In this document: positions 23,014-49,714 of the stretch, piece by piece
How the letters are laid out: every line of letters starts with the position of its first letter
Position numbering within the stretch: the first letter of the stretch is position 1
From: Psammoneis japonica
Taxonomy: Eukaryota
DNA: 64,000 nucleotides
NCBI GenBank assembly: GCA_008632985.1
Contig: QPGO01000103.1
Span: 62,001-126,000, forward strand
Direction: 5' to 3'
Made by a program: the position numbers and the translations under genes
Notes under the pieces: model-generated
Database searches by the model: none
The model's input: only the letters and a program-made list of their open reading frames with translations
Told to the model about the DNA's origin: nothing

Positions 23014-25975
23014 TCCTCCGCACGACCATATGGATAAGAGGACGTCATTTTATGAATGGATATATAGAGTAGCAAGTGTTGTCGAGTGGTTGAAAGATGA
23101 ACAAGACGTTTGTTGTGTTTGCAGTGTTTTCAGTTTTTTCGTTGTTTTTTTCTGTTTGTGACGAATGACCGAAAAGCGCACGCGATCGCGAGTCGTTTCA
23201 AAACCACGTCGTAGAAAACCTACTAAGCTCTACGTACGAGGTATTCTGTAAAAAACGAACTCGCGATAACTAAAAAAATATCACCGTCCGTTGAGTTAGT
23301 CCTGGCGATCACCCGGGAATCGAATGCCGGTGCTAATCTCCACATCATCCAAAAACATCAAACGAAAACGCAACACCAACACGCAACACGCCAACCCAAA
23401 ACTTTTTGAAGAAAATTGACAGCAGTGAATGCTACTCTAAGAGAATAACCATGGAAGACGAAAGAATAAAACTTCCTTCACTGACCCTGGTCACCCACCA
23501 TGGTGGGGCAAACACGCAACAAGAAGCTGGTTGGTGTTGGGTGCAACCCAGGGTCGAATCGCTGGGCCAAGCACGAGTGGAAGACACCAAGGCAATCACG
23601 CAGTCATTGGCAAACAATGTCTTCCACCAAGCAATGTGCCTGGAGATCTCCTTTTCGATGCCGAATGGATCTGAGAAAGAAGTCACACTGCGCGGCCAGA
23701 TGGCTGGGGGACTCATTTGTGGGGGACATCAACTTGACTTCATCGCTGGCAGACAATGTGTGCTGTTCTCAATCAAAATAAAAAGAACACTCTGCAGCAT
23801 TGATGACATCATTCTGCTTCAAGGCTGCACCTCATGCAGCACTTCACAATGCCACCAACACGTGGAAAAGATGAGACACCACGTGACACACGCACAGCAA
23901 CGCTCTCTGTTGTGAGTGTGCCCTCTCCTCGCATGAAGAGAAAAGCACCATCAAGTTTCCTGAAGACCATCGGGAATGGACAGACAATGACTTGATTGAA
24001 GTCTTTCCAGCTGCAGGAGAGGGAGGACAAGGCATTTGTTTGGAAGTTGCACGACACAGGAACACACAAGACACATCACAGGAAACACCACATTTCATTT
24101 TGCATCACTCTTGTTTTTGGCTTACAATGTGTCTTTCGCCACAGTTGCCTTGGCCTCTTTGTTGCTGAGACCTGGTCACAACAGAAAGAGTGCAAAACAG
24201 GCATTTTGAAATCCACAGGGAAAAGGGAAGTTTTCCATTTTCTTCTCCTGCCAAAGCCATTTTCATGCAAGACAAACCCAAAATGTGATGAGGAGGGAAT
24301 TTGTGTGAGAGCACTGCACAACACATTTGTTGGGTTTGGGACTCTTTTCTGCCTTTTTGATCAAGTGTCAACAACTCATCTCAAGATTTCTGTTTTCAGA
24401 AGAATGTCTTTTAAAAAAGATGGGTTGGTGACAGTCATGCAATCATCAGAACAGAAGTCTTTGCAAGCACTTGAATGTTCAGAATTTAATGTGCTGCAGC
24501 ACTGCTCACCGATGCTCAGTTGCATCATGAAGGACATCTGCACTGGCTCACAAACACAAGGTCACAGCATGTGTTCCAGGCATTTCATGAGCCTGTGCCA
24601 GGGCTGTGCAGACTTCTCCTCCCATGTTGGGAGTGGACTTCTGCGTGTGAGATTCTGAGGTGAGCCCTGCAATCATGTGTGAGATGACCAGTTGGCCATG
24701 ATTGCTCAATTCTTGCCCACTGCACAGCTGTGCCTTCAAGCACAGCTTGCAATGAGAACAAAAGAATCTTTTTCTGTTTTAAGACAGAGATGTGCAGTGT
24801 GATTGTTCTGGAGTGAGGCAGGCCACAACTCCAAACAGCGCGCAACAATCAGCTGCTTGTGCCTTGCTTGCTTGTGTGCCATCATCTTCACAGCTCCAAT
24901 CACAGAGCCCTTGGCACTTTCTTTTTGCTCAGTGCCATCTTGAGATCTTTTTCTTGCATGGTGCTCTGGGTGCTCAAGCAATTTTGATGGAATCACATGA
25001 CTTTTGGTGTCTCAGCACTGAGTGTGCATTTTGCGCCAACACAAAACACTTCTCTGGCTGCTCTTGCCCATGCTCTTGTGAGTTGTCTCTCTCACCCCAG
25101 ATGTTTCATGCAGTTGCAAACAGCAGAGGGCAGCTGGGCACTTGTGTCTAAGAAGCAAACTGGTCAAAAATCTGTGCCTGAGTCAAGTTTGGTTTCCTCT
25201 CCTCAAGTTTCACTTTGTTGCTCTCTTGACCAGCTGAGTGCCGTTTGAGATGGGGCTTCAAATGACCTGTTTTTCTGCCTGTCATTGCCACCTTTGCCTT
25301 CAGATCATCTCCCAAGCTCACAATGTGTTGCCTTTGTTTGCACAGAGCTTCAAACATGCCTGTGTGTGAGCTGCTGATGATGCCAACATGTGCTGCAGCA
25401 CAAGTTCAATGTGGCAGCTCTGTTCTGGCCTGCTGTGTGGCTGCACTTTCATGAATGGCTTGCACAAGAATGAAAGATTCTTCTCCATGATGTTTGGATG
25501 AATGATGTTTGGCATTTAGATGGAGGTGAAAGTGGCTTGGATGTTTTGAAGGGAAGCAGGCCATGACTGCCATGCCAGCTTTGTGAAAATTCTCTGTCAC
25601 TTGCATCTCCGCATTTGTTTCCAAAAATGTCTTGACTGCCATCACAGGTGTTGGCCCTTTGTTTCCTCAGTTGTTTCATAAATTCTGCTCTGGGCACCAG
25701 GCCAATTTTGACAGAATCCTTGGGACTTTTGATGTTGTGTTTCAGCAGCACTGGGTGTGCAAATGTTTGTTGCAAAGATGCACCAAGCATGTCTCATCTC
25801 CATGCTCACGTGCAAGTTGTCTCTCACTCTGGCTGTTTTCCACGTGGATGCAGATGGAAGTTGATCAAGCACTTCTGCCTGAGAAACAAATTGGCCACAA
25901 TCTCTGCATTTGGCTGAGCTTCTCCAACTTTTCTTGAGATGGTGAATTCATTCTCCTTTTCTTCCTGCAGCAACT

Positions 25976-26054
25976 GGACTCTCTCTAACCACATGATCTG
26001 TTTTTCTCTGCTGTGGACTCTCTCTAACCATGATCTGTTTTTCTCTGCCATGGA
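25976..26054. repeat. ~40-bp tandem duplication
   Basis: ggactctctctaacc(ac)atgatctgtttttctctgc present twice. Confidence 0.85.
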
Positions 26055-27865
26055 AATCACACTTGGGTGATGATGCTGTGGCTTTGATGCAACAGAGAAG
26101 GAAAAAGAGGCATTTTGACAAGAAAATGGAGATGATGAATTGAAGGAAGAATGCAACAAACTGCAAGGTGAAATGGGCTAAAAATGCAAAAACAAATGCA
26201 ACAGTGCTCCATCTTGATTGACAAGGGACAAGGTTTTTCACTGCACACAGAGGCCACAAAGCAGCGCGGCACATGTTTGGATCTGCCCAGGATTTGCCAA
26301 TGTGGCGGTGAATCACACAGATTTTGCAGACTGTGGTGCTGAGTGGGCAGCAGATTGTGGAGCAAACTTGGCTCTCTTTGTGGCCACCAGAGCTTGTGGC
26401 ACCTTTGAAAGCTGCCTCAATGGGCTCTTGGCTGGCTCAAAAACTGTGTTTTCTTGCTTTTTAGAGTTCCAAAAGATCATGCAGCAATTGAGCATCTGCA
26501 CTTGCCAGCTGCAGCCAGGGCTCAGCTCTTTGGCATTTTATAGATTGTTGACACAGGCACAGAAACACTGTCATTTCAACACTTCAAGTGTGCGCAAAGT
26601 GAGTCTGGCTTTTTGGCCAAGCAATGATCTTTGCTCAAACAAATCTCTGGCAAATGTGCCACTGCAAAAATCAATGGACTTGCTTGGTGCAAGGGATGAG
26701 CTGTGGAGCATGCTGTTTGGTGACATCATCTGCACTGGTGCTGATGAAACAACAATGTTGTTGTTGTCAATGCCAAGTCACATTTTTTGACAGAGGCTCA
26801 CCACCACCAGCCAGTTTCACCCTGAACAAGGCTTTGCATCAATCAAAGTGTGATGTCCAACAGAGTGCTCCACCACCTTTTTGTTTGACTCTTTTGTTTG
26901 AGCCACAATGCACCCAAAGTGCACAGGATTTGTCAAAATTGAATGAGAGCATGCCCCACCACACTTCACACCCTTTCTTCACAGAATTTGGAAACCTTGG
27001 TTGACACACACACACACTGGTGGCTTGTGCACCTTTCTTTGGGTGTCGCCAGCTGGCTTTGTCCAAAGCATTGCCACACTGAAAAGCACATTGAGCTGGC
27101 ATTTCACCAACCTCATTTGCATTGTCATCATCATCTAAAAAGAAGAAAAAACTGTGAAGTCATCAAAACAGGGCAGTGAATCATGGATTTTTCAGTGCAG
27201 AGCTGACCCCTCCACAGCACTGTGCAGAAGTGACCCAGCACACTTTTGCACCAAGATGCTGGACCAGGCATTTTGCAAGAGAGTTTGGGGTTGTGAGCAC
27301 CCAAAAAAAATCTGGCAATGACATTTTTTTGGTTTTTGGGGCTGAATGATTTCTGCAACCCTGTTCTGAATGGAAACTTGAAATGTCTGCACCTTTCTGT
27401 CTTTCTCCCCATGACAGTGAAAACACACACACACATGCGCAGCAGGAGGATGCGCACACACAGCCTGCACAAAAGCAAGGAGCACAAAGGAAGATGGCCC
27501 TCCAGCATGTCGGCTCTTGCTCTGGGGTGGGAACCATGGACAAAAAGTGAGGAGTGTGTGGAGCTTGGGTCAGTGGGCCATGCTGCTGACATGCACAAGT
27601 GCAAATCTTTTTGCAGTCTGCCCCTCGACCATTTGCTGCCAACCATTTTTCTAAAATGTGGCCACTCTGTCAACCAGCAAAAACATTGTGCATGTTTGAA
27701 AGATGCCAGCATCAAATCCACTTCTTGGCTTTGCACAAAGCACACACTTCCTGGTCTGTTGGCCACAACACCCATCTCTTCATCATCTGTGTTAAAGGAA
27801 AACAAACTCCAAGCATGTCACAGATCACCACACTTGCCAGCAGGTTGGCCACAGCTGTGCTGGGC

Positions 27866-27901
27866 AACAACAACAACAACAACAATGATGATGATGATGA
27901 T
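27866..27901. repeat. Compound microsatellite (AAC)6 AAT (GAT)5
   Basis: Read directly from the sequence. Confidence 0.9.
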
Positions 27902-29094
27902 GCAATCACAATGACAGCAGCAACAGTGCTGTCCACAGAAAAAGATGACCATGCTTGGCAGCACTTGACAAAGGCACTGGGGTGCTCACAATGTGTCACT
28001 TGGAATGACCCACCCTTCAACAAACAGCACACAAAATGTGGGGACTTCCATCTGGGGTGATGCCAAAAACATTTGCTTTGGAGCTGTCTGTGTGAAGGCG
28101 GACTTTGCCCATCAATTTTTGCAGCTCCAGCAAGTGATTTGGCTTCAAGCCCCAATGATGACAGCAAAGCTGTCAATGAAGATCTGTCTTGTGATGATTG
28201 TAAAAATGACTTGGTCCTTTGTGGCAACGACAAAAGAAGATCAAGATTTGCTTCTTCTTGTCTGTGGTGGGGCCCCTTCTTTTTGTTTGCAGTTGTGCTT
28301 GAAACTGCAGTTTGTCTGTTTTAAATGGCACAGCTGATTGATGGTGTGGTGCCATGTCAGAACAAGTGCTTGCAGCCACACAAGTTTTGCACATCACCTT
28401 GTCACACCATGCATTTGTGCTCAAAATTAACAGCGGCCCTCCTGGCATTGCAGCAGTGCAGCCATGCTGTGCAAACTCAAACATGCTGCTGTTGTGCGCC
28501 ATCTTCATTTCAAGAGTTGGTCATGACAATCATGTGTGTTGGTTGTTTGGCTTCAATGCATGATGAAACAATGCTGAGTGTGGCATGGCAGGCCCTCAGC
28601 ACATTGTGCAAAATTGAGCATGTGCTCAATTTGAGTGGGTGTGCTGGCGAACATTTCAGAAATGTTGTCATCTTTTTGATGGACAGCAGGAGCCAAGAAG
28701 TGCACCACGTTGGCTGGCTTTGCTCTGGCCAACAAAGCCTCTGCAGCACCACACCATTTCTGCTCACTTTGCCCTCCTGCAAGAAAGCCTCAGACAAAAC
28801 AGCTAATGGCTGGTGTGAGCTGCTCTTTTGTCACAGCAAGCCAGCACAAGAAAATCTGTCAAGGTGCAAAACACTCACTCCTTGTCTGACGTGATGCTTT
28901 CTTTGCTGCCAAGCAGGCACAGGCCCATTGTGCAGTGCACAAAATGGGGATTTTCTGTCAGCAGAATGCGCAGCACATTGCGCAGAGTGCGCACTGCGTA
29001 GAATGCATGTGGTGCAGTGCCAGGTTCAGTGCAACCATGCTTTGTTGCCGGCAACATGGCAATGACACCATTTGTTGCTTTTTGACTGCATTTT

Positions 29095-29400
29095 GCTGCG
29101 CCACATTGCCAGTGCATCACATTGCCACTGCACCACATTGGCCACATTGCTGCTGCACTGCATTGCCACTGAATCACACCCCTTTTGCCAACAAGAAAAA
29201 AGACACAACAAAATTGCATTGTGCAAGTGCACTCAAGCTGAGAAGAGCTCTCTCGACTCTGGGCTTCTCTTGCAGCACCGCCAACAGCCTTGATTGACAT
29301 CATGTCCTTTGTGCAAACAAGAAAAAAGATGCAACAAAATGGCATCATGCAACATGTTGTGCTGGGCTGTCTCAACAACATGTGCTTGAGCTGAGAAAAA
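29095..29400. repeat. Degenerate short tandem array (cacattgcc-like units) followed by two diverged copies of a 50-80 bp segment
   Basis: cacattg recurs at 29101-29170; aacaagaaaaaaga..caacaaaat.gcat..tgcaa...agctgagaa occurs at 29190 and 29316. Confidence 0.75.
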
Positions 29401-30445
29401 AATTGCTCGCTTGACTGGAGCACTGGAAAGTTGCGCAAGGACCACCAGCTGGAGCTCAGCTTCAGATGTGGATGAACGCATCTCATGTGGTGAACACACC
29501 GCCATTCCCAAACCCTCATTGCAACCTCTGCATCATCTTCTTTCCAAGCCAGTTGGTCCATGTGTTCTTCAAAGTGGCTTGGATTGTGCTCCTCTCCAGC
29601 TTCTTCCTGCTTTTCAGCCTGGGAGGCTCGCTGTGGCACACCTCTTTTGGGAGACCAAAAGCAAGTTCTTCAAAGCAGCTGCAGCGGTGCTCTGTGCCAG
29701 AGTTGCCACAAATGGCAAGAACTGTGTGGGTGCAAGCACACTCTCTCTGTTTGCAACTTGTCCAAGATGGGGTGCAGCAAACACTTGGGCAACTTTCGTC
29801 GTGACAGCCAGCCAGGCAGATCTGCTTGCTGGCACTCAGGAATGGGGCCCTGCTCCACCTGCACTGTCGGGCGGTCACCCCTCAGTCTCTGTCTGTCTTG
29901 TCTCCGTTTGTCTTGCAGTGCTGTGCCATGCCGGCCATTGTTTTTGTCCGAATCATCTTGGACTTGAGATTTGTCTCCACGACATACAACATGTCCTTCT
30001 GTTATAAGTAAGATATGTCTGAAAGTCATTTGATTCTCGCAGAAGAAGTCTCTCGTGAACAAAGATTTGTCTAGGAAGGACAAAATGCCGCGTGCTCAGG
30101 CGTGCTGATTTTTTGCAGTTTTGACCGAAACAGGGAGGCTTGAACGATTGCCGGCCATTCTTGACGACCGAGGCAGAGATTGCCTCAAGCTCGACGTCTG
30201 TTGTCGACTTGAAGAGGTAAAGCAACGGCTACGAGAGCGAGTTGAATCATTTCTATCTCAGATTGACCGAGCAAGAGGGTCAGTTTGGTTCCGCTCGTGA
30301 TCTCTGTTCTGCCATAAAAAACGAGAACTCCTCTCTGCTCACGATCAACAATCGCAAATCAATTATCATAAAACCGAGCTAATTGACCACATGACCAAGA
30401 GAATTCCTTTCTACAACGAAATACTGACGATACGACCACGTGACG

Positions 30446-33012: not shown

Positions 33013-35399
33013 GCTGAACCAGCATGGCATACCTCGGCGTGGCAGTTGAAGCGATCGCCATGTTTGTGCGGTAAAGAAGTACCATAGTTACGTCACCCCA
33101 AGGAACGAGTGCGATAGTAAGTGTTCAAGTAGTTTTACATGTTTCTAAATAGATGTTCTTTTGTAATTTCTCTCGAACGATCGAACTCAGCTCCTTTCAC
33201 TATCATGCTTCGTAAACCACAACGAGACGCTATGCTGATAGTGAACGAAGCATCATTCAACATTCCCATGCTGTGCTTTTTCCCTCTTATATTTTGCTGC
33301 TTCGCCGGTAGAAATAGAAAACACCTTCTCATACCTGTAACCCATTGGGTTTGCGATGTGAAAAGCGATGCAAAGAGCTGGTTGCACCACTGGTGGAGCC
33401 ATTTCATTTTTGTTGGTCCCTCTGCTTTGAACACCTTGTGGCTCATCTTTCTGCCAAAACAACACAATGACAACAGAGAGCAGCAGGTGTTTTTCCCACC
33501 ATCTCCCACTGTTCTTTTTCAGAGATGGTCCATTGTTGCTCCATATCATCAACTCATGCACTCATTTGGTCTGAGAGACCTGCAAAGCTTTCCAGATGTG
33601 GTGGGCCACACTGGTGCCATGGCTTGAGCGACAGAAAATTTCAGCTGCAGCCAACCAGCCTTGCACGTTGTTGACAAATCATGTCAAGAAGTCATCATGC
33701 ACAAAAAAGATGAGTTTCCTTGTTTTGCATTTGTGCGCTGTGGATGCAGCTCAGCTGATTGTGGAACAATTTGAAAACAAGAGCTCAGGTGTGTCATGCT
33801 TTCTGTTGAAAAGTGTCCCAAAACTTTCCGCCAAGAGCTGGGGTGAGTCTTTTGCAGGGTTTGTGCTCCTCTGCACAAACCAATCAAGTGCCAAGCATTT
33901 TTTTTGAAACACTGCACAAGGGCAAGTTTGATGAGACAATGACTGCTCCCTTGCCACTCTTGACAACTGCAGCGCTGATGGCAAGGCCCACAGATGACAG
34001 CAGCTGCAAATCAAAGAGCAATGGAGAGCAAAGAATCAATGTGCCAAGCACTCTTTCTCTGGGGCTGTTCCCAAGAAAAACTCTTCCAAGCTGTCAGACA
34101 GAAGGTGACAAGTCAATGCTGACAGATGATGCCAACTCAAGCCAGAAGGAATGCAAAAACAGCCACAAGTTTGGTCAGCAACAATGACAGTGATGGTGAG
34201 TGCAACAGCAATGCACCTGCAGAAGTGGCCCACACATCAAAAAAAAAAGATGGGCAGCCAGCATTTTCTGTGACAGCATTTGTCATTCAGCGAGGGTGCA
34301 CAAAATGCCCAGGTGTGGTGTGTGTTTTTCATTTTGGAAAAAAGGTCACTGAGCTGTGACAAATTTGTGTGAAAACTTGGACATGTTTGTGCCATGTCTG
34401 CATTGTCATGAGAGCATTGATTGTTGAGCCAAACAGCAGCAAATCAGTCCAAATGGCTGAGGCATTGTCCTGTCAATGCACAATGGTGTGTGTGACACCA
34501 GGGATTGTCAGGGAATCTTTTTCTGGGTTTTGTCATGCACTGCGCACATGAAAGATGTGCCACAACTCTCTGCAGAACAACAGCCATACATGAGCACATT
34601 GCCAAAGAACAACAGAGCTGTCCACAAGAGTGACACAGTTTTTGTTGTTTGTTGTCATGCTGCAGCAACATCAGCTGGGTGTGGGGGCACAGTGCACAGG
34701 AGGCAGAAGTTCATCATCAAGTTCTTGTCAAAGCTGTGTGACTGCCAGTGTGGTGGCAAAAACTTGCCAGAAGCAAAATTTGTGAAAGCCATGGCAGATG
34801 CCAAGAAAGAGGGAGATGGCAGAGATGGCAGTGCAAAACATGATGAACTTGATGACTGTGACAATGCCTGCCATGCAGAGGCTGGGCAGAAAGAGAGTTT
34901 GACACAGGTCTTTTTGGATGAGATGGTGACAGCTTGCTGCTCCACCAAGGAGCCATGCTGCCATCTGGCAGTGACAGCACACCAAGGGAGTCTGACAACT
35001 GTGACTGGACACAGCCAGAAGAGCCAGAGTTTGGCAATGTTGACAACCCTTGTTGGCATGGCTTGCACATCCACACCAAGCAGCCAGAGCTTGAGAGCTC
35101 TGGCTCAAAGCACTGAAAATGGTGCCACTCTCTGTCAACAGGCATGGCTCCTGTGCCAGTTGACACAAGTGGTGAACAGGCAACCAACAACTGACATTTC
35201 TGCTGAGCAGGTTGGGAAGTTGGAGAACAAAACAAGGAAGAGATGGGGACCCTCCCAGGCAGGCACAAAGGGGCAGTGCTGGCAGCAGAAATGAAAAAAA
35301 GCACCCTGGCAGTGGAGGCAGCAGCTTGTTGCTGGAAAAGCTGACCTGGTTCTTTTAACATCAATGTGCCAAAAAAGCCAGGGATGACAAATGAGTGCA

Positions 35400-35880
35400 T
35401 CCAAAACAAGGGTGCTCTGTTTTTCTTTCTGCTGCTTTTGCCCATTTGCTCAGTGGAGGAATTGGGTGTGGAAAGGACCCAAGGAAGATGCTTTGCATCA
35501 AAGCTGTGAAATTTTCCAGTGTGCATGCTGAGAGAGATTTGGATCTTGGCAACATGCACCAGCACAATTTCAAGTCAGCAGCTGCTGAAGATGATGGAGT
35601 TCAAGATCAAAGCAACAGAGCAATCTGCTGCTAATGGATGGGAGGGACAGACTGCAACAAAGATGCAATTGATGCCATGACTCACACCCAAATCAAGCAA
35701 GTTCACAAATTGTGTCCCAATGATGCAGCACCCCAATGCGGCAAGCCTGGCCACCATTCTGCCCACAAGTGTGACATGATTTGTGGTGCCCTGGCGCACA
35801 ATGTCAATGTTTTGTTGTTGAGTGCACTGAGGTGGATTTGTGCAGTGACAAAATGTTGAGCAGGCAAAAGTCAATGTTGC
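35400..35880 (+). mobile_element. Decayed piggyBac-like transposase fragment
   Basis: AMTHTQIKQVHKLCPND..GHHSAHKCDMICGALAHNVN..VDLCSDK resembles in spacing the piggyBac segment M-x3-F-x2-I..N-D..K..(ls)iDE; recognised from memory, not by search. Confidence 0.45.
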
Positions 35881-37689
35881 CAAAAGCAAATCCCGCTGGG
35901 CTTCCTGCAATGATCAGAGCCCTTGCCTTGGCAATCTGCAATGGCAGTGGGTCGCCGAAGGTGTCAATGCAAACTTTGGACACTCGCACAATGACAGGCA
36001 CCTGCTGATGCCAAATGACAAATTCCAAATGACTCACTCTAAAGAATCAGATAAAAAACAAAGGCCAGGGGTGGATGATGGTGGAGCTCTTCTCACAGAG
36101 AGTTGCTCAGCAAACCACATCAGGAGTCAAAACATCTTTCTTTCAACACATCTGGGAACCTTGTGATGTCCCAGATCTGGGTGCTCCAACACAATCCTGC
36201 TGCTTGCATTGATGTTTTAAAATTTGGTCCAACGGTGCTGAGAATGGACCTTCTGCAACAGCAACCAGATTGTCGTCATCAGCCACTTTTGTTGCTTCAG
36301 CACTGACATCTGACAAGTCAGAATGTTGCAGGTTGGCAGCGCACTGTCCCCTGCATTGACAAAGAAGTCAACCATGTTGTCAAATGAGTTTGCAATGCCT
36401 TGCAGGCTCTCCAGAAAATGCCCTGCACAGGCACAACAAAAACTGTCATTGAGGATTCAACTCTGTGGAGCACCACCAACCATTGGTTTTCTTGAGGAGA
36501 GTCAACTCAAAAAACTCCATCAAGTGACAAATCCATTCCAATGTGGCCTTGGCTTGGTTGATGTCATGGCGGAAGAACAATGCTGGCTTCTTCACATCAC
36601 AGATGATGCCATCTGCATCCTGCATGGGTCCACAACAACCCATTTTGTCTTCAGGATGATTGGTGTTGAGCTTGCAAGGGGAGCGCAAACCCCGAATTTG
36701 TCTGTGCTGTCACATGCAGGACAACTGGCCATTGGTGTGTTGCTCAGCTGTGCAATGTCGTGCTTGTCCAGGGCTGGTTGCTGCTTGCATTTGCCATCCC
36801 TCCTGGACTCCGCAATGCACTCACCCTTGATGTGCTCATCACCCTCATCAAGTCACATGCTCAAAGTCACAACAGCAACATGCATTGCTTTGCTTGTGGC
36901 TTGGCTTCCAACAATCTGCCAACATTCCTTGGTCTTGAGTGCACGCCAAGAAACCACATGATTCAAACTCAATGGATGTGCTCCAGTTGTCATGTGCAGA
37001 AAACATTGGCACAGCAGTGAATGCACACTTGCAAATTTCTGTGCTCCACATCTCTGCACTTTCATGTGTGCTTGCCATCATGCTGTGCCTCCTCATCTGT
37101 GGGGCACTCCACTTCATTTGAAGGGATGGGATCTCACTGCAAGCAGACATGCGACCGTCCCTCTCTTCCTTTGCATCAACAACCAACTGACACAAATCAA
37201 AAACATCATGTCAGACACAGGGGTCATTGCTCAACTGACTCTTTCCACTTTTGAGCCATTGATCCACCTCAGTGCTTGCCACTTGGAATTCCTCATTTCT
37301 GAGTTCCTTCCATTGTTGTGACATTTGTTTGCAGGCTGCTCTCCACTCTCATTGCACATGGCTCCTGCTGCAAACAGCCTCTCTCACATGTCTCCCACAG
37401 GTCTCTAAACTCACACCAGCAATTCCATGACCACCATTGAGTGATCTTGTCAAGGGGTGCATTGAACTCATTGCTGGGTTCATCTGCACATTCTGTCTCC
37501 TCATTCATGGTTGATGGATGTTTCTGGAAGAACAAAACACTGACAACACAAATTGTGGTTGGCTGAATCTTGAAGTTCTGGACAACCACATGCTGCATCA
37601 GAATTCTTGCACAATGCTGTCACAAACATGAAACATTCCTGTGTCACAATTGCAATTGACAGCTCTCAACAGCCTGTTTGAACTTTCAA

Positions 37690-40500
37690 AACCTTCTGCC
37701 CTGCAATGGCTCAGTCATGAAGTTGCTGAGCACATCATCAGTTGGACAGCACTTGCCCTCAATTTGCCATTCTTGACATGATTGGCAACAAAGAAATGCC
37801 AAACATTCAGTGCTCTGGATTCCTTCCCAGCGCTGCTGTGCCCACTCATTTCCAACAGCATGGTGCTCTTGTCATCCTGGTGCAGGACATTCTTGTCAAT
37901 CACATGTGCCCCTGGTGCTCCATGAACAACTTTGTCCACAGAATCACAGCCATTGCATCATTGACTCCTGCAACAAGTTCAGCCTCTGTGCTGCTCCGGG
38001 TGTTGAGCTTCTGGCATTTTGATGTGACACGCACTGCTGCTCCATTGCCCATGGTTGCAACCCCTGCTTCCATGTGACTCTCAAAACCAGGGTGCAGCAC
38101 AAACAGTGCATCTGTGCACCACTTGATTGCTTGGAGGTCCTTTGCACTCGGTGCAGGCAGTGACTCAAAATTTTGTGTCCGGTTTAAAAATGCTTGATGC
38201 AACTGACTGGTGTTTTCCCCAGCCCTTGCTTGTTGGTGGGCTCTCTGACCTGTGTGAGCAATGCTGTGACAGCAGGGTGTGCATCCATGTGGCCTCTCTT
38301 GGGTGCAAACAGTCCTTTGGCCACCCACATGTGTGGAGTGCCTTTGCTTCATTGGCCAGCAATCTTGTGCCACCTGCAGTGTCAAATGGGTTATCTCCAG
38401 CTGGCGCATCAGGGCAGGATCCACACTCTTGATCTGTTCTGGGAGCTGATTGATCATCTTGCAAATGCAGCTGGTCATGTTGACTTTCACCTTGCCCTTG
38501 TGGCTGAAATCCAGGATGAAATCAAAGCAGTTGTGCTTCTTTCCTTGTGCTGCAATGACCATCTTGTTGAGCCAGCTCAAGAGTTTGTCATTTGCTTCTG
38601 GACTCTTGTGGCTTGAGCAGGTCATCCACATAGAAAAACACAGTGAGCTGCTTGCCATTGACTGTTTGAGTGGCAACGCATGGATCATGTGGGTTGAACT
38701 TGAGCCAACTTTCTCCCAAGTCTTTGCAAAATTGCTCATGCCACAGAAGAGCTGCAACTGACATGCCATGTGTGGCTCCAAAGACTTGGATGCAGATGGC
38801 TCTCTTTCCCTTTTCTATGACCGCCAATGGTCTGCACAGGTTGGGATCAATGCTTGCTGGGCTTGTTGGCACTCCTGCAATTTTCATCATGATGCTGTCT
38901 TCACCCTCCTCTGGCTCTGGAGCCAATGTCTGAATGAATGCACTCAGTGCATTGGCGCTCATTCTGGCTCAGCACAAAGGCACACAGCCCAATGTTGTTG
39001 ACTCTGAATGCCGTGGCTTGCTTGTCAATCTTCTTGTCTGGCAGCTGGAGCTCATCTGCCACTGGGTTGTCATGTGTTGTTCAGCGCTTGCTCTTCATGT
39101 CCTCCACAAACTGAGGATGTTTGCCACTGCTTTCTCTGTTGCAAGCTTTCTGTGTCCACCCATCCGGGCATGGTGGCTGCAGTCATCTTCTGGGGTGTTC
39201 ACTCCTGGCTGTGTTTGCTTGTGGACATGTCAATCTTGATCATCTTGGCCAGCTGCACATTGTGCGCCAATCTCTGGCTTGCTGCCATGCTGAGGGTGGA
39301 GCCATTGTCAAGGATGATCTCATCCCTGTCAATGCCTGTGCTGGCCATTGGCTTGATCTGTGGCACTCATTTCTGGTTTTTTGTTTGCCAGCTGCAGCCC
39401 ATGCCATGAAGCACTCCTGCTCCAGCTGGAATGGGTTGATCTGTTGGATCCAGTGATGTTGATGCTCACGTTGTTCCCTTCCACCAACAAGTGGTCATCA
39501 CACCTCCAGCTCATTTCTGTGCATGATTCTGCGCCCCAATGTTTGGCTTCCTTCTGGCACTCTTGAACCAATTGTCACGTGCAACGCTGCTTCAACACCT
39601 GCAGTCTGGGGACTTGTGACTCAGTTTGCCACAGCAGTGTGACACATTGTGGTGTCATTCTGGCCACTCTTCTGGGCATGCTCTGGTCCTTTGTGTTGTT
39701 GGGTCAATTTGTTGTTGTTGTTGCCATTGCTGCTCTTGTCATCTCTGCATTCATTGTTCCTCCTCCTGTGTTGATTGTAAGAAGATCTTTGTCTTTTGGA
39801 TGGTTCAGCAGTGCATCCTTTGCCTTCTCTAGAGTCTTTCTTGGACAGGCATCTTTGCCTGAACCACAGTCTCTGACAAAGCTCTTCTTCAGACTCTTGT
39901 GGCAATGATTGCCACTGTTCTCCACAAACAGACATGTTGTCCACACCTCAAATGCTGACTTCTTTAGCTCATCTTTAAGAGTCATTTTGGCATCTTGGCA
40001 ATCCTTGGCATTGGAGACAAACCCACCCAGCATTCTGTCTCCCAATCCTTTGCTGCTTGCAGCATCTTGCTGATTCTTGAATCTTGAGAGGCGGCAATTG
40101 TTCAACATCTTGTTCTCTTGTTGGCTCACATCTGGAATGTTCTTCAGGGCCTTGACAACAATTGCATGGAGTGGATGTCAACCTCTCATTGTGTCAAAAG
40201 CAAGGGCAGGATTGGACCAGCTTCAGCAATTTAATCAAGTTGTTCCCAATGTTGAGGCAACTGGATTGGCTTGCACTCTTTGCTTCACATTTGCTTGGTG
40301 CTGCAGTCATTCAAATTCTTGGTGAGTGCAGTTGTCTTTTTTGCTTTGAGCTGCTTTGCTTTCTTGTGGTGGTCACTTGGCTCTGCTTGTGCTGGTGTTG
40401 TAGTCTCCAGCACCTTCTGGTGTCCCTTGGCTGCCTCTTCAGGCACTTTTTCCTTGAACACATTTGAGCAATTGATCATGGGAGGCTGAGACAGCTGGCA
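37690..40500 (-). mobile_element. Decayed Ty1/Copia LTR retrotransposon (gag, RT and RNase H remnants)
   Basis: RT: FNPHDPCVA, FFYVDDL, GKKHNC..LDFS..GKVKVNM; RNase H: QKLNTRSSTEAELV, LHQDDKSTMLLE..SRALNVWHFF; gag-like GKDACP.KTLEKAKDALLNH; many frameshifts; LTRs not identified. Confidence 0.9.
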
Positions 40501-41845
40501 CTTGCTTCTGCCATGCTGCTGATGCTGAGGCTCAGTGAGTGAGGTGTTGTTTGGTTGGGTGTTCTCCATGTTTCACATGTGCGGAGCCAACAATGCCATG
40601 CCCACACTTTGTTTGCACAGAAAGATTGCACCTGACATGAAGGGTGGCAGGGCAGTCAAAGCATGAAGGAGCTGAGCCCACTTCAATCTTGAGGCAACCC
40701 AAGAAGAAGAAACAAACAAACAAAGAACACTGCAAAAAGCAGCAAATCTGGACATTTGGAGGACAAACAATGGAGGAATCCTCTCTAAAAATCCACCAAA
40801 AAGGGCAAGCTGCACAACAGCAAAGAGAAGCACTGCACCAGTGAGTGGTGCATTGCTGTCCACAAGGCCACCTGCCTTGAGTGGCTCCAAAAAATGACCT
40901 TGCCCACATCATCCAAAATGACCACACATGTCCTGGGTCCTGGTGCAGACTGCAGGAGGATGCACATGCAGGCTTCAGACATGCACAAGAAAGACAAGGA
41001 GGGGGCTGTCACTGCATGGCAAGAAACCAGCAACTCTCTTTCTCTTGGCAGTCAAAATGAAGGACTGTCCACTGCAAGGAAAAGTGAGGCAACCTTGAAG
41101 GCAAAGGAAGGTTGGCTTGAGGAAAAAATCAAAGCCAAATCCCACACTCATCCAACCAGAGCAAAGCCAAGTGCAGCAGTTGAAAACATGACTTTGCCAT
41201 GGATTGAAGCAGCAGCACAAAAACATTGTCTTGCACTGGGAAATCTGAGGCTGGGCAGATGCTCCCCAACAACTGGGGAGAAGCAAAGGCAAAGGATGTC
41301 AACAAGAGATGCAACAGGGTCATGCACTCTTGTGAAGCTGGCATGACAAGGTGCCCAACAAATTTGGCACTGTCCCTCCCATGGCATTTTGCAACAAAGA
41401 CCATGTTTCAACATTGCAAGAGCCCAAAAGGGAGCACACCTTGGGCAAAAAGGGAGGGTGCACAATGCATGGTGGCATCTGAGCTGGGGAAAAGGAGAAG
41501 GAGCAGCTTGCCATGCATGAGATGTGCAACCAAGTGCACAAAAGACAAGTTTGACAGCAACCATCCCTTTGAATGCATTGCTGTCATGGAAGTGTCAAGG
41601 ACCACCAACTCTTGGGGCAGTGAGCTCACAAATGATGCAACAGGAAGGAAAGCAGCAGCGCCAGCTGTGCGCTTGCATTGACAACTTCAAAGGGTGCTCA
41701 AAACAGTGTGTCAAAGACATGGTTGCTCTGACCCACAAGCTGTGCTTCTTGACAGAGTGGCAGGAGAAGTTGGACCCAAAGCAGCCTTTTGACATTTTGA
41801 CCAACAAAACATGGAGGCAAGGCATCACACTGGGGACTTCATGAT

Positions 41846-41886
<41 letters not shown>

Positions 41887-42294
41887 CACANNNNNNNNNN
41901 NNNNNNNNNNNNNNNNNNNNNNNNNNNNNNNNNNNNNNNNNNNNNNNNNNNNNNNNNNNNNNNNNNNNNNNNNNNNNNNNNNNNNNNNNNNNNNNNNNNN
42001 NNNNNNNNNNNNNNNNNNNNNNNNNNNNNNNNNNNNNNNNNNNNNNNNNNNNNNNNNNNNNNNNNNNNNNNNNNNNNNNNNNNNNNNNNNNNNNNNNNNN
42101 NNNNNNNNNNNNNNNNNNNNNNNNNNNNNNNNNNNNNNNNNNNNNNNNNNNNNNNNNNNNNNNNNNNNNNNNNNNNNNNNNNNNNNNNNNNNNNNNNNNN
42201 NNNNNNNNNNNNNNNNNNNNNNNNNNNNNNNNNNNNNNNNNNNNNNNNNNNNNNNNNNNNNNNNNNNNNNNCACACACACACACACACACACAC
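41846..42294. repeat. (CA)n microsatellite flanking an N gap (41891-42271)
   Basis: CA repeats on both sides of the N run. Confidence 0.95.
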
Positions 42295-43525
42295 CAAAAG
42301 CCCCTGTCAGTGCTGTTGACAACCTGGCAAGGATCCAGCCAGTGAGCACAGCGCAGCTTGTGCAGCCATCTTTGATGAGAGACAGCGGCAGAGTGCAGAG
42401 ACAGCAGAAACACTGGCAGCAATGCAGCAGGCAAAGATGCGGTGACTCCACCCACAAGAAGTCAGATGGTTTTTGATGAAATTCATGCAGAGGATGAGGA
42501 GGAGGGTTGGCTCTGCAGCCCTCAAGCTTTGCCCTCAGCAGAGTCAATCTTGGGTTGGCGACTTTGTCCCTTGGAAGTTGACAGTGTGCGCTGTCCTTGC
42601 AGCTTCAGCAGCAGCAGCTGAAGCTCCAGACCTCAGAGCAGTGATCAGGGTGCGCACAATTTCATCTCAGCTGGCTGTTTGACATTGTTCATGCGCACCA
42701 ATCCATGCAGCAAGACAACCTGCCACTCATCCTTTTTTCTTCTTTGGAAGAAATGAGGGGAGATGCTGCTCAAGAATCGAGCAGTGCTGCAGCTTGCTGG
42801 ATGTTGTCACCAAGTGCAACCCATGGTTGGCTGCCAAAAGAAGGGCGGTGTGGGGTGGGGCGGGGCTGGGGAGAGACCCCTGCTCTGCCATTGGACCGCG
42901 CTGCACAGACACCTGGTGGGAGCAACCAAACATTTCAGTGGGGTTGTCTTTTTCACAAAAAAATGTTGCGTTGAAAGATGACCTGCCACCCACTGGCTGC
43001 TGGTTGGATTTCATGTGTGCAGCTGGCAACCAAAGCTCTGTGGCAAAGAGAGGTGCCGTGTGTGCCGAGCCCCTGATGATGGAAAAATCCACCACCCAGC
43101 TGAAAAAACTCAGCCCAACTCACCTTGTCTTGGGGCGGAATGGCCACAGTTTGCAAAAGAAGAAATGGAACGAACCTTGGCTAAAAGGAAATTATGAGAA
43201 AGCATGCACAGGTAGAATCATGAGCCAAACCCGACAGTGTCATCACCGATGAAACACATCAGCCTGACATGATCAGATGGACGGCAAAGCCAGACTTCCG
43301 TGTGACGATCAGACCGTCAGAATTCGCTCGGTCCGTCCGTCCGCGGCGCTCGCTCGTGTTTCGGTCTCGAGCCTCTCGACGATGAGCGACGCGAGCGCAA
43401 GAAAAGAGCAACGCGAACACCACAGCAGAACAACAACACGACTTGGTACTTCTATTTGATCATGAATGTAACATGTCTGCGATTTGCGACTACACAACAC
43501 TATTTATCAATTATAACGTCGAGTC

Positions 43526-47561: not shown

Positions 47562-47869
47562 TCAAAGCACGTGAAGTAGCAACGTCGTTTCCCTTGTCGG
47601 CTCGTTGCTTCTCGAGGTTGCTGTTGCCGTCGATGTTACCGGCAGTGGTATGTTGATGTGTCGGATGTCAGATCGACAATGCTGCGATTCCATCATGCGC
47701 GCTCCTGCGCCGTATCAATTGTGCGTTGCTTTGCACGTGACTTCTTCTTGGCGGGAAGTTTTGAACCACCGGAGGGATGGTCGGACGGTTCCGTGAAGAC
47801 ACCTTCTTGCTTCGTCGTCTCCTCGTTCGGCGTTCCTTCTACTCCAGTGGCATTAGCTACATAATTGCA

Positions 47870-49320
47870 GTTCTCGCAGGCAAAGAAAGCCAAGCAGTGA
47901 CAGTGTGCTGTGATGGACACAGTGCACCACCAGCCATCTGGCATTGTCTGTGGTGGCAAGCAGAGCACCCAGGAAGAATGAAAAAGAGCTGTGCTGTTTC
48001 GCTTGTGATGCGATTTCTCTCATCCTCTGCATGCTCAGCCCCGCGGGCCCAGCACTGAGGAAAGTGCCCTCACTGTCTTTGAAAAAGTGACAGTTTTCAG
48101 ATTCACACATGATGGGCACCCCACATTTGACAAAGGGCAGCCGCCAGAGAGCACAAGAGAGATTGACAAAAGAGAGAGTGTTTGCCCCCCTCTCTTTTGC
48201 CACCCAACCAGCTGCAACATGCAGCTGGGTGGGGAGAAGTTTCTCCCCCACAAACACACAGCTCACATTGCAGAGCTGAGCACCACTTTCATGAAGAGCA
48301 ATGTTGGGTCAGGAGTTGGATCTGTTGCACACGCACGATTCTCTCACAAAAACAAAACAAAAAACTTCAAAGTCTCTGGAGGCTCACAATGCCCTCAATG
48401 TTCATGCATCAGCACGTCACAAGTTTTCCCAAGCTCATGCTTCTTCCAACACTTGATGCTGAAATGACTCCAAGGAACAAATCAGAGCACCAATGTCCAG
48501 CAGGGGGCGTCACCATCACCCCCCCCCCCCCCCGCTGAAAAGCTGGCGAGCCTTCTTGGCTGCTGGCAAGCTTTGTCAAGCTTCTCTCTTGTCACCAAAA
48601 CTTTTTTCTGCCATCACAACAGCACAAAAATTGCACTTGCCACACAAAGCTCACGACAAAAAAGACCAAATTGGGGGCCAAGCTTCCTCTCTTTTTTGGC
48701 GAAGCCTCGCTGGCAAAATTTGTGGCTGCAGCATTGCACTTGTGATGGAGACTCTGTTCAACTGCAACAATGGCCCTCTTTTGAATTGGCACACAGCACC
48801 AGAGGAACAGTGTGTCTTTGCAATCTCTTGCCCCTCTTGTGTTGCTGGTGAGGTCGTCTCAAAATTTTCTGATCGGCTGCAGCAAGCACCGCTTGTTTTG
48901 GTGTCTTCTTTTTTGACCCTGTGGCGGCATGCCTTGAAGAGCTGGCCAGGACTTGGCTTTGCTTGTTTCTGGTGCAGCAGCTTCTGCATTGTTTTGATCA
49001 CACTGCACCAGCCCTGCAGCCCCCCCCCCCTCTCCAAAAATCAAAAATTCAGCAGCTGTTTTCTCTTGCAGTGCTGTGCAAGCTTCTCAGCTGCTCTTTT
49101 CTCAGAGCTCGTCTTTTGCCATTTCTCATCTCATTGTCTCCAATGTTGTTGGGCCAATGCACTTTGCAAGTGCAGTGCATTTTGCTGGGTGACAATGTTT
49201 TCAAGAGAAGGAACTGCGTGATCATGTTGTTGTGCTGTGTCATGGTTTGGGGGATGAAGAATCAGCCTGCTGTTCTCGCGTTTTGTCTCTCATTGCTTTT
49301 TTCAATTTCAAATTGATTTT
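47870..49320. other. TpA- and CpG-depleted degenerate island 4
   Basis: Essentially no TA by eye over ~1.45 kb, TG/CA excess, poly-C runs near 48517-48533 and 49020-49030. Confidence 0.85.
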
Positions 49321-49714
49321 TGCTACTTTTCAGAAAAATGCCAAAAAATTGGCAATGCACTTTTCAGTAAGAAAAGGGATGCCCCCAAAGGATATCGTGC
49401 GTGCTACCCAGCACTATTTGAGGTGCTTTAGACAAAGGGGGACTTTAATGATTACTACTTACCCCCCCATGAGTCTTGTTGCCACCATTGGCTAAAAATT
49501 TCGCGACGCGGCATCTCTAATGCGTGCCAGCAACACCACGCATGACACGCACACACAAAAAGCCAACTGCGTTGCTGTCGCTGTTGTGGTTCTTTGCGTC
49601 TCCAAGCTTTCCGAGACGTGTTCGACATCCACCCATCCGACACGGTTGTGCTTTGAATTATTGAGAGGAAGCAGTGTGCGTGCACATATGTCTTAGAAAT
49701 TCATAGAGTTGGGA

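Follow-up and report, generated by a model that had tools for sequence, protein, structure and literature searches.

The minus strand of the window (the whole stretch of 64,000 nucleotides analysed) carries what its similarities at the protein level identify as a degenerate Ty1/Copia element in a diatom genome. This relic, to judge from its reading frames dead and integrase-deleted, very probably underwent in-situ transition hypermutation at TpA and CpG after integration, on both strands, together with the 9.9-kb repeat-derived block that surrounds it. The change has a direction, is specific to these dinucleotides, falls symmetrically on the two strands, is confined to sharp blocks beside spared host genes, and is present in the sequencing reads. 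The initial annotation had located the relic at 37715-39900; it does lie there, but the element reaches further, from 37665 to 40324.

That the host is a diatom is reflected in a Ca-ATPase gene in the window, which is 62–67% identical to named diatom proteins. We based the Copia assignment on 137 database homologues (E ≤ 1e-3), with PF07727 (RVT_2) present in 119 of the 120 listed. A Pfam scan of the element's nine ORFs returned no relevant family at E ≤ 0.1, a failure that we attribute to hypermutation and frameshifts. We therefore give all domain positions as aligned to a profile that we built from 48 full-length relatives, our reference set, and that three minus-strand frames matched with E = 8e-64, 6e-54 and 2e-13. 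An RVT_2-type reverse transcriptase (RT) followed by RNase H was found with this profile (RT, E = 8e-34; RT/RNase H, E = 2.8e-46). The closest full-length relatives are 33–39% identical (HMMER, 1046 matches, none better than 1e-30), so ancestral codons were deduced from proteins and not from DNA.

The order along the minus strand is gag, zinc knuckle, protease, RT and RNase H, as in Copia, but the integrase, which in Copia elements precedes RT, is deleted (Table 1). The reading frame is broken by at least five frameshifts, plus in-frame stops. The zinc knuckle aligned at a posterior of 9.8 with its Cys and His residues intact, and the protease active site reads L-D-N-G-S-T where the relatives have D-S-G-S-T, a mutated form of the D(S/T)G motif. 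About 725 profile positions (about 527–1250) are absent, comprising the remainder of the protease and the entire integrase, and tblastn with the 48 full-length relatives gave no integrase-region match anywhere in the window. A pair of LTRs around the relic was found neither by nucleotide self-BLAST nor by BLAST after purine/pyrimidine collapse, and a transition-tolerant local alignment of the flanks scored 235, against 291–363 in eight shuffles. An N gap near 41860–42271, with (CA)n on its flanks, could conceal one LTR. As no LTRs were found, the block edges cannot be matched to the element ends. A Copia-type polyprotein in a diatom host is also what characterises CoDi1-7, and a CCHC knuckle in gag is described for some CoDi6 families (Maumus et al. 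2009, PMC2806351); the relic differs in having neither an integrase nor detectable LTRs. A Cylindrotheca fusiformis protein is among the relatives found and, like the diatom host, points towards the CoDi lineages.

Table 1. Positions in the window of the TpA- and CpG-depleted blocks and of the recognisable parts of the Copia relic (o/e, observed/expected).
Feature	Positions	Strand	Details
Block B1	7064-8218		TA o/e 0.06, CG o/e 0.25; internal direct repeat
Block B2	23663-29905		TA o/e 0.05, CG o/e 0.18
Block B3 (holds the Copia relic)	33316-43182		TA o/e 0.03, CG o/e 0.11, CA and TG ~1.89 each
Block B4	47841-49393		TA o/e 0.00, CG o/e 0.25 (over 48001-49250)
Polyprotein C-terminal part	37665-37900	-	two further frames (37757-37900, 37665-37754); one in-frame stop; profile
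RNase H domain	37906-38223	-	frame 2; profile
RT–RNase H linker	38232-38333	-	profile domain E = 1e-9; third frame (frame 0) only, flanked by two more frameshifts
RT, second part, past frameshift	38332-38616	-	frame 2; profile
RT, first part, to (Y/H)VDD box	38615-38962	-	frame 1; profile E = 8e-34
Internal-deletion junction	38963-39100	-	profile position 526 (window 39101), then 1251 (window 38962) after 138 bases
Protease core	39244-39327	-	profile positions 458-485, mean posterior 9.8
Gag CCHC zinc knuckle	39562-39654	-	profile positions 350-380; frame differs from gag core
Gag region	39791-40324	-	tblastn matches of relatives and profile alignment
Gag well-aligned core	39842-40192	-	profile positions 183-297; one in-frame stop

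The initial annotation proposed that the change was systematic in the Copia relic. This is so, with 6 TA against 72 expected and 17 CG against 139 expected over 37715-39900 (from the window background ratio; Poisson p = 1e-23 and 3e-39), but it is a property of the whole 9.9-kb block B3 and of three other blocks, not of the element alone. Across the four blocks, TA o/e is 0.00–0.06 and CG o/e 0.11–0.25, against a window background of 0.56 and 1.03, with edges sharp to ~250 bp, and the ordinary intergenic DNA of the window is not depleted. TpA is more completely erased than CpG in all four, and G+C is unchanged (0.475–0.498 in the blocks, 0.479 in the background). Blocks B1, B2 and B4 show no similarity to the relic, and a Pfam search of 70 ORFs of at least 100 aa from the other depleted regions gave no transposon-related family and a single weak Abhydrolase_2 match at a block edge; the one block with identified content is B3. 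Because TAA and TAG stops have gone, long false ORFs occur in all six frames: a stretch of 8 kb contains 109 stop-to-stop frames of 50 aa or more.

The direction of the change can be read from the tyrosines. The ORF at 37900-38781 (minus strand, 293 aa from TTG; 304 aa from stop to stop, 37900-38814), which had been flagged as free of tyrosine, indeed contains none, and its 18 His and 14 Cys amount to 10.5% of its residues, where 270 relatives have a median of 3.8%. The motif changes quoted with it are all present in the alignment to the 48-relative profile. In RT and RNase H, AlYGm of the relatives corresponds to ATHGM in the relic, LlwY to LLWH, NpYDpC to NPHDPC, hdY to HNC, kwyvD to KWCTD, qGy to QGH, lyqD to LHQD and nirYFF to NVWHFF, while in gag qYP.kt corresponds to ACPRKT. 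Compared with the 48 full-length relatives, none of 18 conserved Tyr columns is kept (9 Cys, 7 His, 1 Leu, 1 Phe), whereas 198 of 315 other conserved columns (63%) are (Fisher p = 4.3e-8), so that tyrosine was lost faster than other residues. The losses are spread over the polyprotein. Four conserved tyrosines of gag are now Cys, Cys, His and Cys, that of the zinc knuckle is His (CAC), those of the first part of RT are Cys, Cys, His, His, His and Leu, two in its second part are both Cys, and those of RNase H are Phe, Cys and His. They include invariant RT and RNase H positions, with Tyr in 48 of 48 relatives. The relatives themselves are not already His or Cys at these sites: in a wider set of 22 columns, those with Tyr in 54% or more of the 48 relatives, 0 to 7 of the 48 carry either residue (among the five commonest residues listed per column).

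Since TAY always contains TpA, its conversion would give His (CAY) or Cys (TGY), and 16 of the 18 conserved Tyr codons are now of these two kinds; the remaining two, replaced by Leu and Phe, are not single transitions. The sole Tyr codon of the RT reading path (TAT, 38630-38632, in a neighbouring frame) stands where 48 of 48 relatives have His and is a C-to-T change that created a TpA. A Tyr-to-His/Cys record in a conserved polyprotein thus gives the direction directly, which dinucleotide statistics alone cannot do.

According to the reading that we prefer, the Copia element would have integrated and then, with the 9.9-kb block, been hypermutated at specific dinucleotides on both strands, nearly every TpA becoming CpA or TpG and nearly every CpG becoming TpG or CpA. 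CGN arginine codons would be expected to yield Gln, His, Cys or Trp, and TA or CG pairs across codon boundaries would give Ile to Val, Lys to Glu, Thr to Ala, Asp to Asn and similar changes. The replacements agree with this in part. Six of 11 replaced Arg columns have become Gln, His, Cys or Trp (CGN to CAN/TGN), which fits the earlier suggestion that Arg-to-Trp and Arg-to-His changes are CpG outcomes. Val became Ala through GTA to GCA, and Ile became Val after a codon with T as its last base. At 37796-37804, adjacent Ile-to-Val, Arg-to-Trp and Tyr-to-His changes are all TA or CG transitions. Outside tyrosine the TA/CG context is modest (37 of 65 single-transition replacements, against a chance level of 0.39–0.57), and only G-to-A changes preceded by C stand out (15 of 20, against a baseline of 0.42); for 54 of 135 replaced conserved columns, no single transition explains the replacement. 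We also imposed full TA/CG conversion on the real codons of 51 intact relatives, and the retention by residue type predicted by this forward model correlated with that observed (Spearman 0.65, p = 0.002; without Tyr, 0.59, p = 0.007). The Tyr-column tests and the forward model together support the direction first proposed, that TA was present and was then mutated on either strand.

The two strands were affected equally. In the 22 Tyr columns, 11 codons are now TGY (Cys) and nine CAY (His), with one Leu and one Phe, and the plus strand of block B3 has 1085 CA and 1087 TG; both strands were hit, which indicates that the process acted on DNA. Editing of the RNA or cDNA during retrotransposition, ADAR-like (A-to-I) or APOBEC-like (C-to-U), followed by integration, would suit a retrotransposon, and in animals it likewise produces deaminase-driven transition clusters in retroelement sequence; ADAR favours a 5′ U before the edited A according to a preprint (10.64898/2026.01.13.699255), and LTR elements are known targets of APOBEC editing (PMC4866542). 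Such editing acts on RNA or single-stranded cDNA, however, is strand-asymmetric and stays inside the element, whereas the footprint here is symmetric and runs kilobases past the element across the 9.9-kb block, into parts with no second copy at ≥80% likeness, with three dissimilar blocks depleted as well. It also varies between integrated copies, and even the window and a contig of the same locus differ by one TG/CA swap (38211-12) and one TA/CA difference (TA in the window, CA in the contig, at 33544). We rejected one-strand editing of RNA or cDNA on the symmetry of the footprint, and consider any editing before integration very improbable.

A comparison of copies points the same way. We found 449 contigs at least 80% alike, which define a repeated family over about 35.8–40.4 kb; the parts of the block at 33.2–35.8 and 40.4–41.8 kb are single-copy at this likeness and are as depleted as the repeated parts, so repetition is no more than a possible trigger. 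At 37804/37805 the relic has T|GTT (Asn-Val) and at least ten other contigs have C|ATT (Asn-Ile). Because 46 of 48 relatives have Ile, the ancestral pair was T|A, resolved differently in different copies. Further TG/CA swaps occur at 37069/70, 38211/12 and 39970/71, which makes four such swaps among the 40 differences listed (417 more exist). Where the relic has TG, the CA of other copies, at one well-supported site, indicates that mutation struck each copy on its own, at the DNA level and on either strand.

The reads also bear on whether the pattern could be a sequencing or assembly artefact, such as systematic miscalls at modified bases. On some platforms, modified bases can be miscalled in a motif-specific way. 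The reads of one run, assembled into unitig-type contigs at a k-mer depth of 41–72, nevertheless tile and reproduce 33200-41800, with seven letter differences in all between the window and the six same-locus contigs listed. The assembly contains sized N gaps, typical of paired-read scaffolding, and a partial signature appears in metagenome contigs from other projects. The artefact was rejected, as the reads agree, and we give it practically no credence. The run is probably from the source sample and is not an independent biological replicate.

A native composition is conceivable as well, in which an active Copia lineage avoids UpA and CpG, for instance against host nucleases or sensors. Suppression of CpG and UpA is common in RNA viruses and retroviruses, and the databases contain other Tyr-poor Copia ORFs. 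Against this, all 18 conserved tyrosines are lost even where every relative has one, the frame is broken at least five times and the integrase is gone, the choice between CA and TG at one site differs among copies, and unrelated neighbouring sequence is compositionally alike. The broken element and the variable CA/TG choice led us to reject adaptive composition, which is extremely improbable.

A slower route to the same composition would be passive decay without a dedicated defence, where context-dependent mutation or repair bias in silenced, CpG-methylated heterochromatin (5-methylcytosine deamination plus a T:A-to-C:G bias at TpA) gradually removes both dinucleotides from unselected DNA. The element is old and broken, with its frameshifts, in-frame stops and integrase deletion, methylation-driven CpG loss is ordinary, TpA is already under-represented in the background, and the equal depletion of single-copy and repeated parts of the block would also fit. 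The extent of the change argues otherwise: TA is depleted by ~94%, yet 63% of the other conserved residues agree with those of relatives that share just 33–39% identity, so the rate at TA must far exceed the general rate. Nor would decay predict the sharp block edges beside spared intergenic DNA. Partly mutated environmental copies, moreover, have lost 60–75% of conserved tyrosines and kept 80–88% of other conserved residues. Two metagenome contigs from other projects appear from their codons to be intermediate stages of the same signature: L043 keeps 5 of 19 tyrosines (5 His, 8 Cys) with 80% of other conserved residues kept, and L034 keeps 5 of 13 (5 His, 2 Cys). Four database proteins, P0152, P0226, P0188 and P0170, display this pattern too. 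The comparable signature in Bigelowiella natans is, according to the preprint on it, episodic and ~1000 times the background rate, at ~6e-7 per site per generation (10.64898/2026.01.13.699255). On balance we regard passive decay as improbable. Among the DNA of 80 metagenomic relatives, TA o/e ranges from 0.28 to 0.90, none near the value of block B3, and depletion of TA and of CG is weakly correlated across these loci (Spearman 0.20, p = 0.07). L034 and L024, which are 77% identical over 674 bp and too diverged to decide the matter, differ at 12 CA/TA, seven TA/TG, nine CG/TG and five CA/TG sites.

Hypermutation after integration thus remains our preferred reading, and its closest known counterparts differ from it in instructive ways. 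RIP of fungi is RID/DNMT-dependent and makes DNA AT-rich. It resembles the process here as a dinucleotide-specific transition hypermutation of integrated repeats on both strands that kills transposons through missense and nonsense changes. G+C is unchanged in the blocks, however, and the dependence on duplication that belongs to RIP is not shown for them. RIP changes C:G to T:A, mostly at CpA, and thereby creates TpA, according to PMC2621366, whereas here A:T becomes G:C and TpA is destroyed. Fungal-type RIP was therefore rejected as running in the wrong direction, with TpA nearly absent, CpA doubled and G+C unaltered. Many diatoms do have DNMT4 enzymes related to RID, described in PMC9998398 as of function not known. 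The symmetric decay of methylated CpG to TpG/CpA in silenced transposon DNA, as in vertebrates and plants, would account for the CpG half but leaves TpA, the more fully erased dinucleotide here. Diatom LTR retrotransposons are CpG-methylated, according to two reports (PMC2806351; PMC9998398), and we infer that the CpG half arose by 5-methylcytosine deamination in such DNA.

For the TpA half, the nearest precedent is the chlorarachniophyte B. natans. In its mutation-accumulation lines, 230 of 231 mutations in two integrated viral regions were A/T to G/C, all at TpA and giving TpG/CpA, and its TpA-depleted coding sequences are enriched in RT and DDE domains, as set out in the preprint (Mettrop et al. 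2026, bioRxiv 10.64898/2026.01.13.699255). The likenesses are several. TpA is changed to TpG or CpA depending on strand, an A:T-to-G:C change which here has hit both strands about equally; discrete blocks of foreign DNA lie beside normal host sequence; the long-term footprint is TpA depletion with CpA/TpG enrichment, and the clusters take in ORFs for reverse transcriptase and DDE transposase; and annotation now fails for many of the ORFs hit. Among the differences, B. natans is a rhizarian and the present host a stramenopile, the insert there is a giant virus or virophage and here a retrotransposon relic, and the NCLDV region has an o/e of 0.45 where block B3 is near saturation at 0.03. In B. 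natans a rate was measured and CpG was unaffected, whereas here there is a footprint alone and CpG is depleted in the same blocks. The coupling of TpA and CpG loss thus falls outside that precedent, and the CpG loss may be either a second process on the same DNA or a variant of the B. natans type.

We infer, from the footprint and this one preprint on a distant lineage, that the TpA half may have been produced by a mutator of the B. natans kind, one that targets silenced DNA of mobile or foreign origin. Its most plausible chemistry would be adenine deamination at 5′-TpA, and we tentatively put forward an adenine deaminase as the enzyme responsible, with a chance somewhat below even. Rather doubtful, though worth stating, is a single coupled system of genome defence in diatoms, a mutator that would find silenced mobile DNA and remove from it both TpA and CpG, the self-complementary pyrimidine-purine dinucleotides. 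One possible form would be a DNA deaminase of the ADAT/TadA kind, acting on A at TpA and on C at CpG; another would be a symmetric, heritable base modification at TpA, paralleling 5-methylcytosine and marking sites for conversion. If true, the editing of integrated DNA at TpA would go back far in the SAR supergroup (stramenopiles, alveolates, rhizarians), as a trait common to stramenopiles and rhizarians, and nature would possess an adenine editor that is specific for TpA and works on double-stranded chromosomal DNA.

Full-text searches of a literature collection found no paper on TpA-directed or TpA-plus-CpG hypermutation in diatoms and none that links such hypermutation to CpG loss, and a 2025 preprint on diatom transposons (10.1101/2025.10.24.684338) makes no mention of dinucleotides, RIP, deamination, hypermutation, CpG or TpA. 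So far the 2026 chlorarachniophyte preprint is the one report of hypermutation directed at TpA in integrated foreign DNA, and the diatom would be a second, distant lineage. Relics of this kind evade Pfam-based transposon annotation. The joint loss of TpA and CpG raises the question of whether one silencing-linked process or two are at work on the same chromatin. Base-editing research would have an interest in a naturally occurring adenine mutator that is specific for TpA and acts on chromosomal DNA, and a search for the enzyme by comparative genomics becomes practical, by asking what footprint-bearing diatoms share with Bigelowiella. A saturated footprint in a diatom extends the phenomenon to a group that ranks among the main primary producers of the ocean.

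The open reading frame (ORF) in which the initial annotation had noticed an absence of tyrosine lies on the minus strand; between its bounding stops it spans 37900–38814 (304 aa), and counted from a TTG at 38781 it has 293 aa. It is indeed Tyr-free, and His and Cys together make up 10.5% of its residues; the median for 270 relatives from the databases is 3.8%. A Pfam scan left this ORF and eight neighbouring ORFs unrecognised at E ≤ 0.1. A word-indexed search with the element, a degenerate Ty1/Copia retrotransposon, returned 137 homologues (E ≤ 1e-3); among the matches listed, 119 of 120 homologues carried PF07727, the Ty1/Copia reverse transcriptase (RT) domain, at 31–39% identity, and one was a named Cylindrotheca fusiformis protein. 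HMMER, run in full against 1.8 billion representative proteins, brought up no closer relative.

A profile made from the 48 aligned homologues with lengths of 1500 aa or more was run over the three minus-strand frames of 37301–40700. Between window positions 39101 and 38962 the alignment skips from profile position 526 to 1251, so the integrase and its surroundings, ∼725 profile positions, have been deleted. The RT/RNase H part is split into six segments in alternating frames, which implies five frameshifts, and contains one in-frame stop. The Copia element is dead. No pair of long terminal repeats (LTRs) was found by nucleotide self-BLAST, by BLAST after transitions were collapsed to purine/pyrimidine, or by transition-tolerant local alignment of the element flanks (score 235, compared with 291–363 for eight shuffles); an N gap near 41860–42271 may conceal one LTR.

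Features of the window and dinucleotide observed/expected (o/e) ratios; block ratios were computed over the rounded limits 7001–8250, 23501–30000, 33401–43000 and 48001–49250
Feature	Position	Strand	TA o/e	CG o/e	Remark
Block B1	7064–8218		0.06	0.25	
P-type Ca-ATPase ORF	19717–22053	minus			
Block B2	23663–29905		0.05	0.18	
Block B3	33316–43182		0.03	0.11	
Copia element	∼37665–40324	minus			span from profile and tblastn
RT + RNase H	37665–38962	minus			
Protease core	39244–39327	minus			D-N-G in place of D-S-G
CCHC knuckle	39562–39654	minus			frame differs from gag core
gag	39791–40324	minus			tblastn matches; core 39842–40192 well aligned
Block B4	47841–49393		0.00	0.25	
Window outside blocks			0.56	1.03	

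The profile alignments contain every motif that the initial annotation had quoted; in each, the relatives show Tyr and the window shows His or Cys. We counted a column as conserved when one residue was shared by 60% or more of the 48 relatives and the element was aligned there with a posterior of at least 7. None of the 18 conserved Tyr columns was kept (nine now Cys, seven His, one Leu and one Phe), compared with 198 of 315 conserved non-Tyr columns (Fisher p = 4.3e-8). Relaxing the threshold (54% Tyr, any posterior) gave 22 columns, comprising 11 TGY, nine CAY, one Leu and one Phe. The relatives do not already carry His or Cys at the Tyr columns (at most 7 of 48, among the five commonest residues listed per column), and conserved His (7/9) and Cys (5/8) were mostly retained. 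The 16 changes to Cys or His support the direction that had been proposed, from TAY to CAY or TGY. Arg, for which CpG outcomes had likewise been proposed, was kept in 4 of 15 columns, with six of the 11 replacements being Gln, His, Cys or Trp, as expected from CGN→CAN or TGN. Across all 135 replaced conserved columns, a single transition suffices for 81, 53 of them in a TA or CG context, while 54 require more than one. Of 20 G→A changes, 15 followed a C (baseline 0.42), and for the remaining transition classes the context excess over baselines of 0.39–0.57 was modest.

In a forward test, the actual codons of 51 intact metagenomic relatives, with the bases adjoining them, were used to predict residue survival under complete TA/CG conversion. 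Predicted retention was 0.00 for Tyr, 0.41 for Arg, 0.73 for Ile and 0.77 for Thr, with Phe, His, Gln, Cys and Trp at the top (1.00). Predicted and observed retention were correlated (Spearman 0.65, p = 0.002), also with Tyr left out (0.59, p = 0.007). The sole Tyr codon on the RT path, a minus-strand TAT (38630–38632), belongs to the catalytic YVDD box, which reads HVDD, with His, in each of the 48 relatives. Here C→T has created a TpA, against the block-wide trend, and this change may be later than the hypermutation.

The element lies within one of four blocks nearly devoid of TpA and CpG, all with sharp edges in their dinucleotide ratios. At 37715–39900, 72 TA and 139 CG would be expected, but 6 and 17, respectively, are present. 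TpA is erased more completely than CpG in all four blocks, CA and TG are enriched (o/e ∼1.7–1.95), and G+C is the same in the blocks (0.475–0.498) and the background (0.479). On the plus strand, CA and TG are balanced at 1085 and 1087 in B3, and 744 and 765 in B2. This strand symmetry, together with the spread beyond the element, excludes one-strand editing of RNA or cDNA. The change is a property of the block and not of the element, whose TA ratio is far beyond the range of its own family (80 metagenomic relatives at the DNA level, TA o/e 0.28–0.90, CG o/e 0.03–1.32). No nucleotide similarity was found among the blocks, the Copia block included, and no transposon-related Pfam family was detected in 70 ORFs (≥ 100 aa) taken from block regions outside the element. 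The Ca-ATPase ORF is 62–67% identical to named pennate and centric diatom proteins (best database match 82%), which indicates that the host is a diatom, and the remaining host genes in the window appear normal.

Several further features of the blocks were observed. B1 and B2 contain internal direct repeats (7147–7450 against 7841–8154, 80% over 320 columns; 24674–25207 against 25387–25938, 78% over 561 columns; both purine/pyrimidine-collapsed) that are clearer once transitions are collapsed, and could be LTR-like or tandem units diverged via TA/CG conversion. The loss of TAA and TAG, with TGA the one stop left, has opened up long reading frames in all six frames of 35000–43000 (109 stop-to-stop frames with 50 aa or more across 8 kb); gene callers would yield many false ORFs here. 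The N gap in B3 (about 41840–42300), which holds nearly all of the 382 N in the window, has (CA)n/(TG)n microsatellite on both sides, a repeat that the CA/TG-rich conversion product may favour.

Of the words sampled from the stretch, 93% occur in the public sequencing run X1, which is probably the source sample. Contigs derived from its reads (k-mer depth 41–72) tile 33200–41800, which excludes an assembly or polishing artefact; the window differs from the six same-locus contigs listed by seven letters in total. At 80% likeness, 449 contigs place on the stretch and pile up on ∼35.8–40.4 kb, so the Copia family is repeated in the P. japonica genome. Two other parts of B3 (33200–35780 and 40375–41800) have single-copy depth (about 41–79) at ≥ 80% likeness and are as free of TA and CG as the repeated part; present-day repetition is therefore unnecessary for the footprint.

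Differences among the contigs comprised 304 transitions and 153 transversions, with at least four adjacent TG↔CA swaps among the 40 difference rows listed (417 further rows). The most informative swap is at 37804/37805, where the coding strand of the window reads AAT|GTT (Asn-Val) and at least ten other contigs read AAC|ATT (Asn-Ile). Since the relatives have Asn (45/48) and Ile (46/48) at these codons, the ancestor had T|A, which became TG in the window copy and CA elsewhere. Although few, such sites argue for integrated DNA having been mutated separately in each copy. At 38211/38212 the window has TG and the X1 contig covering the B3 locus itself has CA; at 33544 the window retains one of the few TA in B3, where the covering contig has CA. 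Both differences may be allelic or strain-specific and stem from the same process, which would hint at recent or ongoing activity; copy-by-copy mutation is possibly still going on.

Broken frames and copy-specific choices of CA or TG exclude a native composition low in UpA and CpG. The changes (TA→CA or TG, and CG→TG or CA) affect integrated DNA on both strands equally, are confined to the blocks and approach saturation, and much of the remaining sequence is recognisable despite this. Hypermutation of block DNA in situ at TpA and CpG is thus a reading we hold with good confidence.

Partial or complete replacement of Tyr by His or Cys was also found in related Copia DNA, namely three metagenome contigs (L043, L034 and L024), which show moderate TA and CG depletion too (L043, TA o/e 0.28 and CG o/e 0.66), and four database proteins. 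Other conserved residues were retained at 61–92% across the seven sequences, so the process extends beyond the P. japonica locus to other eukaryote DNA. Another metagenomic Copia contig, L047 (G+C 32%), has a CpG o/e of 0.03 and a normal TpA ratio (0.85); the two depletions are thus separable in other hosts.

Fate of conserved Tyr columns in related Copia sequences
Sequence	Tyr columns	Tyr	His	Cys	Other conserved residues retained
L043	19	5	5	8	80%
L034	13	5	5	2	88%
L024	9	5	2	1	92%
P0152	17	1	8	5	
P0226	11	0	3	5	
P0188	5		2	3	
P0170	19	5	5	7	

The CpG half of the footprint would be explained by deamination of 5mC. Diatom LTR elements carry CpG methylation (PMC2806351; PMC9998398). DNMT4, related to the RIP enzyme RID, is present in many diatoms (PMC9998398).

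For the TpA half, the footprint hints, tentatively, at an adenine-deaminase enzyme as the mechanism. ADAT and TadA naturally deaminate tRNA A34 beside U33, a 5'-UA context, so a preference for TpA would be natural for such enzymes. Alternatively, T→C at TpA could arise via a modified thymine, for example 5hmU, a base with a transposon-silencing role in dinoflagellates (PMC11572971). The closest precedent is the TpA-directed hypermutation of foreign DNA in Bigelowiella natans, and a mutator of this kind would account for the TpA loss. In mutation-accumulation lines of B. natans, two integrated viral regions had gained 231 mutations, of which 230 were A/T→G/C, all of these at TpA, at ∼6e-7 per site per generation and in some lines only; TpA-depleted, CpA- and TpG-enriched clusters with RT/DDE ORFs occur elsewhere in its genome, and adenine deamination by an ADAT2-like enzyme is the mechanism that its authors propose, with Bn78255 as their candidate (bioRxiv 10.64898/2026.01.13.699255). 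The text of this preprint mentions neither CpG nor diatoms, and full-text literature searches found no report of the footprint in diatoms or of coupled TpA and CpG loss. TpA-directed hypermutation of foreign DNA is already known from one preprint, and the P. japonica case, seen as a footprint only, is a variant of it that differs in its new lineage, retrotransposon target, saturation and added loss of CpG.
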